DNA from: Escherichia coli
GTDB taxonomy: Bacteria; Pseudomonadota; Gammaproteobacteria; Enterobacterales; Enterobacteriaceae
Assembly (NCBI RefSeq): GCF_003790525.1
Contig: NZ_CP033635.1
Strand: one strand, 5' to 3'
Length of the DNA: 64,000 bases
The notes beneath the pieces were generated by a model. That model was not told the origin of the DNA and did no database searches. It was given only the letters and a program-made list of their open reading frames with translations. This document shows positions 3,353-55,915 of the stretch, piece by piece. A program made the position numbers and the translations under genes. Every line of letters starts with the position of its first letter. Position 1 is the first letter of the stretch.

Positions 3353-3772
3353 ATGAAACGGAACACGAAAATTGCCCTGGTAATGATGGCGCTTTCAGCA
3401 ATGGCGATGGGATCGACATCGGCATTTGCTCACGGCGGACATGGTATGTGGCAGCAAAATGCCGCGCCTTTGACCAGCGAACAACAGACAGTCTGGCAAA
3501 AAATTCATAATGACTTTTACGCCCAAAGCAGCGTGCTGCAACAAAAACTGGTGACGAAGCGTTATGAATACAACGCGTTGTTAGCCGCGAACCCACCGGA
3601 TAGCAGCAAAATCAATGCCGTTGCTAAAGAGATGGAAACGCTGCGTCAATCATTAGACGAGTTACGGGTTAAACGCGATATTGCGATGGCTGAAGCGGGT
3701 ATCCCGCGCGGTTGCGGTATGGGTTACGGTGGTTGCGATGGTGGCGGTCATATGGGTATGGGCCACTGGTAA
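3353..3772 (+). CDS. zraP: Zinc-resistance-associated periplasmic protein ZraP
   Basis: ATG at 3353 preceded by GGAGG; signal peptide MKRNTKIALVMMALSAMAMG and His/Gly-rich C-terminus; the longer ORF from 3212 is probably an upstream in-frame extension. Confidence 0.88.
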   Translation: MKRNTKIALVMMALSAMAMGSTSAFAHGGHGMWQQNAAPLTSEQQTVWQKIHNDFYAQSSVLQQKLVTKRYEYNALLAANPPDSSKINAVAKEMETLRQSLDELRVKRDIAMAEAGIPRGCGMGYGGCDGGGHMGMGHW

Positions 3773-3773
3773 A

Positions 3774-4475
3774 TCAGAACGTTTTCTCGTTGGGTTGCCA
3801 GCGACAGAAATCAGAGTTTGCCACCAACAGTAATTGCGAACCTTCGGGCGCTTCCAGCCATGCCACGCTGACATCAACAGAAGAGCGGCTCTGGCGGCGC
3901 TCGATATGCGCTATCGCCTGCGAATCTAAATCAGGTTTAATGGTTTGCCCTTCGCAGGTGGTCACAGTCTGCTCCATCGCATGCCAGCGCCCCTGGCGCA
4001 GCACGACTCTCCCCTGACGTAAGGCATCGCTAATCTGGCGGATCTGATCAGCACGATAACGGTATAAATCGATTTGGTCGTTAGAAAGCTGCTGCTTTTC
4101 CCCATCGGATTCACGTTGCATAAAGCTCAGATCGCCGCGATCGTCAAAACGCGCGCGAATGTTCACCGGCGGTTTGCTGTAAACATTGATATTGATGAGC
4201 GTGAGGTTATCGCCCTGCCAGCGATACTCTCGCGTTGTGGTATCGCCACTGCGCCACGGGCTAAACACGGCAAGCAGATGCACATTATCGCCGCTGTCTT
4301 TTCGCCAGATGCGTACCGCGCCCTGGTCTTCAGCAAATCCACTGGCGGTAAAGGGAGGAAGTGAAGAGTTGTGACTACAGGCAGTGAGAAACAGAGCGCC
4401 AGCCAGCATCAATGATCGACGCCAGAAAGACAAAAGGGGTGAAACCACCCCTTCGTTAAAACTGTTCACTGCCAC
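3774..4475 (-). CDS. yjaH: Conserved protein of unknown function YjaH (DUF1481 family), probable lipoprotein
   Basis: 233 aa ORF with N-terminal signal/lipobox-like sequence (LFLTAC); K-12 gene order. Confidence 0.8.
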   Translation of the reverse strand: MAVNSFNEGVVSPLLSFWRRSLMLAGALFLTACSHNSSLPPFTASGFAEDQGAVRIWRKDSGDNVHLLAVFSPWRSGDTTTREYRWQGDNLTLININVYSKPPVNIRARFDDRGDLSFMQRESDGEKQQLSNDQIDLYRYRADQIRQISDALRQGRVVLRQGRWHAMEQTVTTCEGQTIKPDLDSQAIAHIERRQSRSSVDVSVAWLEAPEGSQLLLVANSDFCRWQPNEKTF

Positions 4476-4481
4476 GCAATC

Positions 4482-4754
4482 TTACTTAACTGCGTCTTTC
4501 AGTGCCTTGCCAGAAACAAATGCCGGTACGTTAGCTGCGGCAATTTTGATTTCTTTACCGGTCTGCGGGTTGCGGCCAGTACGCTCAGCGCGGTGGTTCA
4601 CTTTGAAGGTACCGAAACCAACCAGTTGTACAGCATCGCCTTCTTTCAGAGACTCAGTAATTGCAGCCAGAGTGGACTCCAGAGCAGCTTTAGCCTGGGT
4701 TTTGGACAGTTCTGCTTTCTCTGCAATTACATCAATCAGTTGAGTCTTGTTCAT
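4482..4754 (-). CDS. hupA: DNA-binding protein HU-alpha
   Basis: 90 aa [93 protein letters not shown]. Confidence 0.97.
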
Positions 4755-4940
4755 AAGTTATCCTTACAATGTGTTTATCGCTTGCTAAGCATCGAGTGCG
4801 ACGGAAATGCCAGAATAGCACTCTCCTGCATACACGCACCGATAGCCACTTTTTTTCGCCCCCCAAATGTAGACCAGACGGGGGGCGAAAGGGAAGACTC
4901 CAGGTACGACAAATCAGGCGTTAAATCACGTTTTCTGGTC

Positions 4941-5531
4941 TTATTGCTGAAAAATTATACCAATATTGCTCTCACCCGCCTCACGCAGGTCTGCCCTAAG
5001 GCCTTTTATCAGCTCGATATCGCGTTCTTCGCACTCAGCTAAAAGTCGGAATATTTCCCACTGAATGTCCCATTCTTGCTCTACAGCTGGGTTTTCTTTG
5101 AGCTCTTCATCGCTCATTTCGCGACCAGCCTGAGTCATTTCCAGCATCGCAACGGTCGTGATGGAGGTCTTACTCACTTCCACCGCGTGTTCGAGCGTTT
5201 CGCCACTTAAACGCGAATGGACCAGTTCACTTAACGCCACGCATGCATCGATTGCCGGATAAACGCCGTACAGATCGAAATCGTCGGCTGAAGGAATCGC
5301 TTCTTCAAATTTCTCCAGTTGGCTGTCGAAATTTACTTTTGCGTCTTTGACGGTCAGCGTTTCCCAGATGAGATCGAGAATGCGGCGGTAAATTTGCCCA
5401 TCACCAAAACCGGTTTGCTGGCAGAACATGGCGTAATTGGGGTACATGCGTTCGCATAAGCAAGCCATGAAAGTGACGTGCTGCCAGCTTTCCAGGCGCT
5501 CCAGACGCAGATGAATTGGGTTTTGTAACAT
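4941..5531 (-). CDS. yjaG: Conserved protein of unknown function YjaG (DUF416)
   Basis: 196 aa ORF; position between hupA and nfi as in K-12. Confidence 0.85.
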   Translation of the reverse strand: MLQNPIHLRLERLESWQHVTFMACLCERMYPNYAMFCQQTGFGDGQIYRRILDLIWETLTVKDAKVNFDSQLEKFEEAIPSADDFDLYGVYPAIDACVALSELVHSRLSGETLEHAVEVSKTSITTVAMLEMTQAGREMSDEELKENPAVEQEWDIQWEIFRLLAECEERDIELIKGLRADLREAGESNIGIIFQQ

Positions 5532-5573: not shown

Positions 5574-6245
5574 TTAGGGCTGATTTGCTGTATAGCGCAC
5601 GAACGCCGGACGTTCCGAGGCCACCGCGTCCGCCCAGCGCGTTGGCTCCGGCAGACGATAGCCTTTCATGCAGCGTTGTACCCACGCCAGCGCGCTGTCC
5701 ACGCTGACCCGATGACCGGTAGCGATAAACAACGGGTTACAGCGCGCTTTGCTGCGCCAGACCCAGGCCAGCTGCTCGCCTTTATCCATCAGTGGGGCCA
5801 GCGCGCCCGGTTCGCTGGAGAGCGGTTCGAATTTACCGCAGAGCCGTTTTTTCGCCACGCCAATGGTCGGCACATCCACCAGCAAACCAAAGTGGCTGGC
5901 AACGCCAAGACGGCGAGGATGCGAGATCCCGTGACCATCGACAAACACTAAATCCGGCTTTTGTGACAGCATCTCCCACGCTGCCAGCAGCGCAGGATAT
6001 TCGCGGAAGGAGAGAAAACCTGGAATGTAAGGCATGGTGGTGGCGATGCGGGCCACTTTATACTCCACCAGCTCAAGCGAGGGGTATTTCAGCAGCACCA
6101 TCGCCGCTCGCGTCACTTCTCCGCCCTGCTCAAATCCGACATCGGCTCCGGCGATCAGATCCGGCGGATCTTTATCGAGTCGATCCTCGCGGATCACAGA
6201 AGAAGCCAGTTCAATTTGTTGAGCGCGTAATGACGCGAGATCCAT
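5574..6245 (-). CDS. nfi: Endonuclease V (deoxyinosine 3' endonuclease)
   Basis: 223 aa ORF; downstream of hemE and nudC as in K-12. Confidence 0.9.
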
Positions 6246-41610: not shown

Positions 41611-41970
41611 TTACTCAGCAACTTCCTGCTTACGGTTACGCATCTTCGCGCCAATCCAGAACACCATAATGACGGACAGTACTGCCGGGAAGAAGTTAGA
41701 GCCGATATCCGGATACTCCGCACGAACTACCGTGCTGTACAGCAGTACGCCGAGAATAAAACAGGCAGCTGCCAGACCCGGCAAGCCTACCGGCATAGTG
41801 CGATTAAGATAACGTTGATGCAGGCAGTAAACCGTCAGCACCAGGGAAATAATCGGGAATACAGAAAATGGCACAATGGAGCTAAACAGCGCTGCGAAAG
41901 TACCATTAATCGATAAGCCAGCAACTAACGCCAGCAGCAGCGTACCTCTATCTTGATTTGCTTGTTTCAT
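41611..41970 (-). CDS. yijD: Conserved inner-membrane protein YijD (DUF1422)
   Basis: 119 aa hydrophobic ORF directly downstream of fabR. Confidence 0.85.
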
Positions 41971-55063: not shown

Positions 55064-55915
55064 ATGTATCACGACGTCAGCTATCTGCTCTCCCGCCTGA
55101 TCAACGGCCCGCTGTCCCTGCGCCAGATTTACTTTGCCAGCAGTAACGGCCCGGTGCCCGATCTTGCGTATCAGGTCGATTTTCCACGACTGGAAATTGT
55201 GCTGGAAGGTGAGTTTGTTGATACCGGCGCTGGAGCAACGTTAGTTCCCGGCGATGTGCTGTACGTTCCCGCTGGTGGCTGGAATTTTCCACAATGGCAA
55301 GCCCCCGCCACTACCTTTAGCGTGCTGTTTGGCAAACAGCAACTCGGCTTCAGCGTCGTGCAATGGGATGGCAAACAATATCAAAATCTGGCGAAGCAAC
55401 ACGTCGCCCGACGCGGCCCGCGCATTGGTTCTTTTCTGCTACAAACGCTCAATGAAATGCAAATGCAGCCGCAGGAGCAGCAAACGGCAAGGCTTATCGT
55501 CGCCAGCCTGCTTAGCCACTGCCGCGATTTGCTCGGCAGCCAAATCCAGACCGCCTCACGTAGCCAGGCTCTATTCGAAGCTATTCGCGATTATATCGAC
55601 GAACGCTATGCCTCCGCGCTTACCCGCGAATCTGTCGCACAGGCATTCTATATTTCGCCAAATTACCTCTCGCACCTGTTTCAAAAAACGGGGGCCATTG
55701 GTTTTAACGAATACCTGAATCACACGCGACTGGAGCACGCTAAGACGTTATTGAAAGGCTATGACCTGAAGGTAAAAGAAGTGGCGCACGCCTGCGGCTT
55801 TGTCGACAGCAACTACTTCTGCCGTCTGTTTCGTAAAAATACCGAACGCTCACCGTCGGAATATCGTCGGCAGTACCACAGCCAACTGACAGAAAAACCG
55901 ACTACTCCAGAATAA
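55064..55915 (+). CDS. yijO: AraC/XylS-family transcriptional regulator YijO (function not established)
   Basis: 283 aa ORF with C-terminal AraC-type HTH (...NYFCRLFRKNTERSPSEYRR). Confidence 0.88.
   Translation: MYHDVSYLLSRLINGPLSLRQIYFASSNGPVPDLAYQVDFPRLEIVLEGEFVDTGAGATLVPGDVLYVPAGGWNFPQWQAPATTFSVLFGKQQLGFSVVQWDGKQYQNLAKQHVARRGPRIGSFLLQTLNEMQMQPQEQQTARLIVASLLSHCRDLLGSQIQTASRSQALFEAIRDYIDERYASALTRESVAQAFYISPNYLSHLFQKTGAIGFNEYLNHTRLEHAKTLLKGYDLKVKEVAHACGFVDSNYFCRLFRKNTERSPSEYRRQYHSQLTEKPTTPE

Follow-up and report, generated by a model that had tools for sequence, protein, structure and literature searches.

Introduction

SsdAI confers immunity to SsdA, a toxin of type VI secretion that deaminates cytosine in single-stranded DNA (PMC7901873). 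It has been described as an exclusively helical protein that inhibits the toxin competitively, mimicking single-stranded DNA in both shape and charge (PMC12494967; PMC7901873), and its acidic and aromatic side chains enter the toxin, where they imitate the DNA backbone and a base (PMC7901873; PMC12494967). Other acidic DNA mimics bind the nucleoid-associated protein HU, namely DMP12 (PMC3643605), DMP19 (PMC5722371) and the phage protein Gp46 (PMC8892312). Here we compare with these systems the products of yjaG and yjaH, the genes on either side of hupA, in a 64,000-nucleotide stretch of Escherichia coli DNA from contig NZ_CP033635.1, which is called the window below. The interval singled out in the initial annotation, 3774 to 5531, coincides exactly with the outer bounds of yjaH, hupA and yjaG:

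3774-4469, minus strand: yjaH, 231 amino acids as annotated, with a reading frame open to a GTG at 4475; DUF1481; a RefSeq coding sequence
4482-4754, minus strand: hupA, the HU-alpha nucleoid-associated protein, 90 amino acids; RefSeq and NCBIfam
4941-5531, minus strand: yjaG, 196 amino acids, DUF416; RefSeq "YjaG family protein"

The initial annotation described YjaG and YjaH as not novel but functionally unassigned, and this assessment stands: the genes are known, the NCBI names are family names only, and the annotation gap is genuine. The searchable literature, outside which most subscription journals lie, contained no published characterisation of either protein, such as had been named beforehand as a refutation. 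As whole words in about 8 million full texts, DUF416, DUF1481, PF04222 and PF07356 occurred only in a proteomics table and an unrelated nematode study, and searches of Pfam (E up to 10), PHROGs and PADLOC returned nothing for YjaG or YjaH beyond the two DUFs. What has been published on yjaG is its use as a neutral site for a selection marker (PMC7022156), a weak macrophage-fitness match in a Salmonella transposon screen, which could reflect polarity on hupA (PMC10272866), and an entry in one mutation list. For yjaH, a network prediction of 2009 ties the gene to core-lipopolysaccharide synthesis (PMC2672614). No literature linking YjaG or YjaH to HU was found. New with respect to the searchable literature are the apparent likeness of the DUF416 fold to SsdAI, the obligate coupling of yjaH to hupA with an embedded terminator, and the DUF1481 fold without a solved relative.

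Results

YjaG: charge, fold and conserved residues

YjaG matches the Pfam family DUF416 (PF04222) with an E value of 2e-83 and 279 bits, against a cutoff of 23.7, over positions 1-187 of the 188 in the profile. It is a typical member that showed no difference from the rest of the family, and it shares the fold of the solved members 2q9r (Shewanella baltica) and 3f7c (Marinobacter), both deposited by structural genomics as proteins of "unknown function". YjaG itself is cytoplasmic and soluble, strongly acidic, and built of helices throughout. Its isoelectric point is 4.45 and its net charge is -20 over 196 residues, the strong negative charge expected of DNA-mimic proteins. To follow distant DUF416 genes and their synteny, we searched metagenome contigs with a degenerate DNA pattern for YGVYPAxD. 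The DUF416 sequences sampled fall into 12 clusters. The acidity is a family trait, with isoelectric points of 4.2-4.7 in 11 of these clusters and of 4.7-8.5 in the remaining one, that of Marinobacter.

The fold of YjaG also appears to resemble that of SsdAI (PDB 7jtu chain B); the likeness is structural only, the sequence identity being 13%. Ten residues are invariant in DUF416 (R28, W56, P80, Y88, V90, Y91, P92, A93, D95 and G191), and N32, Y33, S120, Q157, S188 and N189 are nearly so. No conserved set of His, Cys or Glu pointing to a metal site was present among the invariant residues, and a binding protein therefore fits the family better than an enzyme does. One possible hypothesis is that YjaG acts by binding another protein, probably not by catalysis, and that it would occlude a nucleic-acid-binding surface of its partner, much as SsdAI mimics DNA. 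HU-binding acidic DNA mimics have precedents, and the leading candidate for that partner, named with low confidence, would therefore be HU, the product of the neighbouring gene.

The hupA-yjaH junction

On the same strand as yjaH and immediately upstream of it, hupA is found in 112 of 114 yjaH loci, and the remaining two loci end at a contig edge. Across those loci YjaH drops to 27% identity, with YjaG at 76-82% and HU at 92-98%. The annotated start of yjaH lies 12 bases beyond the hupA stop, and the following elements lie within the first codons of the gene:

4423-4454, minus strand: intrinsic terminator of hupA, GAAGGGGTG-GTTT-CACCCCTT then TTGTCTTTCT, inside annotated yjaH codons 6-16
4431-4433, minus strand: alternative yjaH start, TTG, codon 13, from which translation would begin with a 19-residue lipoprotein signal peptide of canonical form, MSFWRRSLMLAGALFLTAC
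4377-4469, minus strand: predicted YjaH signal peptide and lipobox, MNSFNEGVVSPLLSFWRRSLMLAGALFLTA then C, where Cys31 is the TGT codon 4379-4377 and Ser stands at +2

The terminator scan reported a hairpin at 4454-4433 with 9 pairs, 5 of them G-C, followed by the T-run TGTCTTTCTG. A hairpin with a T-run follows hupA in all 77 distinct sequences; the inner stem pairs differ among them and the folds range from -15 to -36 kcal/mol. The GGGG/CCCC core is invariant, which makes formal covariation weak. Conservation of the terminator was judged from folds of the individual sequences, since RNAalifold aligned the hairpin out of register and returned little covariation.

The position of the yjaH start relative to this hairpin varies by lineage. 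In Enterobacteriaceae the yjaH frame crosses the hairpin, and the "conserved" N-terminal peptide G..PLL is, for that reason, the terminator read as codons (GGG...CCC CTT TTG). In loci of the Erwinia/Pantoea type and in more distant ones the hairpin stands between the genes, and yjaH begins beyond it, with a Shine-Dalgarno sequence of its own and a textbook signal peptide; some loci have that sequence and the ATG within about 20 nucleotides of the T-run. Three candidate in-frame starts are available in E. coli (GTG 4475, GTG 4469 and TTG 4433), all of which give an identical mature protein. Loci of Citrobacter amalonaticus and Kluyvera have TCG in place of the TTG, and an upstream GTG is therefore favoured in those genomes.

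Because the terminator lies inside or just before the yjaH start, and because promoter space is nil in several lineages, we infer that transcripts reading through the hupA terminator are most likely the sole source of yjaH expression. YjaH would then be produced at a low, fixed ratio to HU-alpha, amounting to a small fraction of the HU-alpha level.

YjaH: lipoprotein features, family and predicted fold

YjaH matches DUF1481 (PF07356) with an E value of 9e-73 and 244 bits, against a cutoff of 25, over positions 1-186 of 186. The family is small; a set of 1.84 billion proteins contains 115 representatives of it at 50% identity. Its named members all belong to the Enterobacterales, including Pantoea, Morganella, Erwinia, Serratia and Proteus. 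YjaH is a typical member, carrying the conserved lipobox cysteine and two further cysteines.

The initial annotation had called YjaH a putative lipoprotein, and the sequence bears this out. The lipobox, LTAC (...WRRSLMLAGALFLTAC), conforms to the pattern [LVI][ASTVI][GAS]C and is preceded by Arg-Arg and a hydrophobic stretch. Among 32 diverse homologues Cys31 and Cys172 are invariant and Cys222 is present in at least 90%; the conservation of Cys172 and Cys222 suggests a disulfide. Asp at +2 occurs in none of the 32, which by the sorting rule, a rule of sequence only, directs the protein to the outer membrane. YjaH is thus predicted to be an outer-membrane lipoprotein folded in the periplasm.

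In the AlphaFold2 model (predicted local distance difference test score, pLDDT, 93.2; predicted template modelling score, pTM, 0.83) YjaH consists of an eight-strand antiparallel meander, a 23-residue packing helix and a small strand-helix-strand unit tied by cysteines. The structure prediction and fold comparison proposed in the initial annotation were rewarding for YjaG, where they gave the apparent likeness to SsdAI and the shared 2q9r/3f7c fold, but for YjaH the comparison, which was limited to solved structures, found no relative of the DUF1481 fold. YjaH probably serves the cell envelope by binding or scaffolding. Roles like those of a lysozyme inhibitor or of LolA/LptA were considered and set aside, as the structural matches did not exceed the background of generic beta-meanders.

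Shortened forms of YjaH, with 185-216 amino acids as compared with 231 and with 88-93% identity, were seen in Shigella sonnei, S. flexneri and some E. coli (P0126, P0128, P0132, P0162 and P0216), which suggests in-frame deletions or gene decay in those lineages.

Neighbourhood of yjaG and the DUF416 family

Both genes had been described as universally carried next to hupA. For yjaH the statement agrees with the 112 loci above, given that the other two are cut at contig ends, and for yjaG it is accurate within the Enterobacterales, where the order nudC-hemE-nfi-yjaG-hupA-yjaH is essentially fixed. It does not extend to the DUF416 family, in which hupA accompanies the gene in 4-5 of the 12 clusters, and "universal" is wrong for yjaG because the DUF416 genes of Marinobacter, Shewanella-like bacteria, Halomonas and Aeromonas have no adjacent hupA. 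The best 80 loci from a scan of the genome collection with the DUF416 alignment were all from Enterobacteriaceae.

In 4 of the 12 clusters hupA is the immediate downstream gene, and the genes upstream are nfi, recA, a TraF-like gene and unknown genes. In certain diverged members of the Enterobacterales-type cluster hupA is one gene away, and in a fifth cluster it lies elsewhere on the contig. The other neighbours differ from lineage to lineage. In Marinobacter, dcd is upstream of the DUF416 gene with a 4-nucleotide overlap (L093/L094, 4438-5600); in a large marine, Alteromonadales-like group the upstream gene encodes a MarC-family membrane protein, at a gap of 2-4 nucleotides (L163, 8172-9355); and in a Shewanella-like group a hybrid histidine kinase gene overlaps the DUF416 start (L127, 483-3882). 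Upstream genes in other lineages are recA, a hexapeptide transferase gene or an EF-P-like gene. The Halomonas gene neighbours a glutamine amidotransferase gene and hisF/hisA, and that of Aeromonas a 2-hydroxyacid dehydrogenase gene. The only repeated theme among the neighbours is hupA.

Matches to yjaG in the plasmid collection were rejected as evidence of mobility, because they are either chromosomes under a wrong label or pieces of chromosome in which yjaH still adjoins yjaG. Among the PLSDB entries, NZ_OL790696.1, NZ_CP134663.1, NZ_CP141089.1, CP125156.1, NZ_AP026896.1 and others are evidently whole chromosomes, of 4-5 Mb, labelled as plasmids and scarcely annotated.

Flanking genes and other features of the window

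RefSeq names the yjaH product "DUF1481 domain-containing protein" and places the trio between zraP and nfi-hemE-nudC. Within the trio NCBIfam has a model for HU-alpha only and none for YjaG or YjaH; the hupA product scores 201 bits against the equivalog NF008023 (cutoff 162) and matches Pfam Bac_DNA_binding with an E value of 4e-34. E. coli SMS-3-5 matches the segment 3000-6500 with 100% identity, and 5,419 of 5,426 complete E. coli genomes contain at least 80% of the segment. The remaining genes that concern us are located as follows:

5574-6245, minus strand: nfi (endonuclease V), upstream of yjaG with a 42-nucleotide gap
3353-3772, plus strand: zraP, convergent with yjaH
41611-41970, minus strand: yijD, 119 amino acids, YijD family membrane protein
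55064-55915, plus strand: yijO, 283 amino acids, AraC-family regulator

The last two had been reported further along the window and were found there. As had been said of them, they are in the same state as yjaG and yjaH, with no functional study in the searchable literature.

The coding sequences of zraP and yjaH end one base apart (3772-3774), and their transcripts must therefore overlap at the 3' ends. The pair has been listed among convergent excludons (PMC12288877), and the two genes fell together in a microarray that was not strand-specific (PMC1852313); the joint fall may be an antisense signal. Only about one third of Enterobacteriaceae loci carry zraP; elsewhere purD-purH converge on yjaH (L087, L090, L092 and many others). 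The transformylase domain of PurH has a deaminase fold, and SsdA has no closer structural relative (PMC7901873), but the presence of purD-purH near yjaH is probably a coincidence.

The 186-nucleotide spacer between yjaG and hupA contains a further hairpin, GCCCCCC/GGGGGGC, at 4858-4886 on the minus strand, with a perfect 7-bp G/C stem and a 15-nucleotide loop. It was not reported by the terminator scan, has no Rfam match, and is not a canonical terminator because an A-run (A7), not a T-run, follows it. A match to the animal microRNA mir-584 at 5783-5907 on the minus strand, inside nfi, was dismissed as chance (24 bits against a gathering threshold of 80; E 0.12).

Discussion

The reading that we consider here joins the two leads: YjaG would be a binder that occludes a nucleic-acid-binding surface, and YjaH a binding or scaffolding lipoprotein of the envelope that is expressed by read-through from hupA. 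We put it forward as tentative, and taken as a whole it is rather unlikely to be right in every part. A bolder version is distinctly improbable; in it, YjaG would be a housekeeping DNA mimic akin to the immunity proteins of deaminase toxins, tuning HU or another nucleic-acid enzyme, and YjaH would be a lipoprotein of new fold that is fixed to HU-alpha by an attenuating terminator. The functional readings of both proteins are offered as hypotheses and not as demonstrations.

Several observations weigh against the joint reading. Profiles built from 17 and from 23 DUF416 sequences missed 7jtu_B in PDB at E values up to 10; they retrieved only 2q9r and 3f7c. Most sampled DUF416 lineages lack hupA next door, and the synteny may be mere inheritance because the block nudC-hemE-nfi-yjaG-hupA mixes unrelated functions. 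The link between YjaG and HU is a putative one, drawn from proximity and analogy. With respect to YjaH, acylation, localisation and the disulfide are predictions, and the sole functional hint is the 2009 core-lipopolysaccharide prediction (PMC2672614). Read-through is argued from the sequence, and a promoter inside hupA may exist; the promoter scan was uninformative.

One could envision that the position of yjaG and yjaH beside hupA is an inherited order of no functional meaning, that YjaG binds a partner or ligand unrelated to nucleic acids, and that YjaH is an ordinary envelope lipoprotein whose gene happens to be the last before a convergent neighbour. We regard this as quite possible, although its chance falls somewhat below even. 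It agrees with the variety of genes upstream of DUF416 in different lineages (nfi, dcd, marC, a hybrid histidine kinase gene, recA, a hexapeptide transferase gene and an EF-P-like gene), with the presence of the unrelated nudC and hemE in the Enterobacterales block, and with our failure to find literature tying YjaG or YjaH to HU. Yet the pairing of hupA with yjaH persists in 112 of 112 informative loci while YjaH identity falls to 27%, the spacer between the two genes is too short for a promoter in several lineages, and the adjacency of DUF416 and hupA recurs with differing flanks. The acidity of the DUF416 family and its seemingly SsdAI-like fold would, moreover, suit a protein-binding mimic. 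For YjaH alone, an alternative is a lipid- or lipopolysaccharide-handling lipoprotein of the LolA/LptA kind, after the 2009 atlas prediction of a role in KDO2-lipid A synthesis; we hold this to be improbable, and the model of YjaH gave such a fold no match above background.

Alternatively, YjaG might be an accessory of two-component signalling. A comment on DUF416 in Pfam/TOPSAN suggests an association with histidine kinases, and in the Shewanella-like locus L127 the DUF416 gene does overlap the end of a hybrid sensor kinase gene (sCache, HisKA, HATPase, REC and Hpt domains); zraSR, too, lies about 1 kb away in some Enterobacteriaceae. A kinase neighbour was seen in 1 of the 12 sequence clusters only, however, and two thirds of the Enterobacteriaceae loci with yjaG lack zraPSR; where it is present, hupA and yjaH lie between it and yjaG. 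We hold this explanation to be improbable. The likeness to SsdAI raises yet another scenario, in which YjaG is a chromosomal orphan or generalist immunity protein against injected single-stranded-DNA deaminase toxins of the SsdA type. We think this very improbable, because no toxin gene adjoins any DUF416 gene examined, because yjaG is a core gene whose product is 76-100% identical across Enterobacterales, unlike those of fast-evolving immunity genes, and because expression of SsdA kills E. coli, a carrier of yjaG, when SsdAI is not provided (PMC7901873; PMC11789416). PADLOC and PHROGs gave no match, and the "plasmid" copies of yjaG are chromosomal.

No nucleoid protein of E. coli is more abundant than HU, and we know of no dedicated endogenous protein that regulates it in this organism. 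If YjaG is an acidic mimic with HU or a DNA-repair enzyme as its binding partner, it would represent a new layer of nucleoid control and would also hint at the origin of the immunity proteins of deaminase toxins. In YjaH one would have a clear case of a periplasmic lipoprotein whose gene is tied to that of a nucleoid protein and whose fold is unrepresented among solved structures. Should neither lead hold, yjaG and yjaH are two of the many conserved "y-genes" of E. coli, an ordinary annotation gap.

As compared with known systems, YjaH has what the Lol-sorted outer-membrane lipoproteins of E. coli have, namely Arg-Arg, a hydrophobic core, LTAC, and Ser rather than Asp at +2. It departs from them in the n-region, which at 18 residues is unusually long as annotated because the reading frame passes through the hupA terminator. 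YjaG differs from SsdAI in having no adjacent toxin gene, in being a slowly evolving core gene and in showing no detectable sequence similarity to it, and E. coli, though carrying yjaG, stays sensitive to SsdA, surviving its expression only with SsdAI on a plasmid (PMC7901873). The other group of relevance comprises DMP12 and DMP19 of Neisseria, HI1450 of Haemophilus and phage Gp46. These proteins are smaller than YjaG, and none was among the 60 PDB folds closest to the YjaG model. They are acidic, and the DNA-binding surface of HU is their proposed site; YjaG is as acidic as they are and is encoded beside an HU gene in several lineages.

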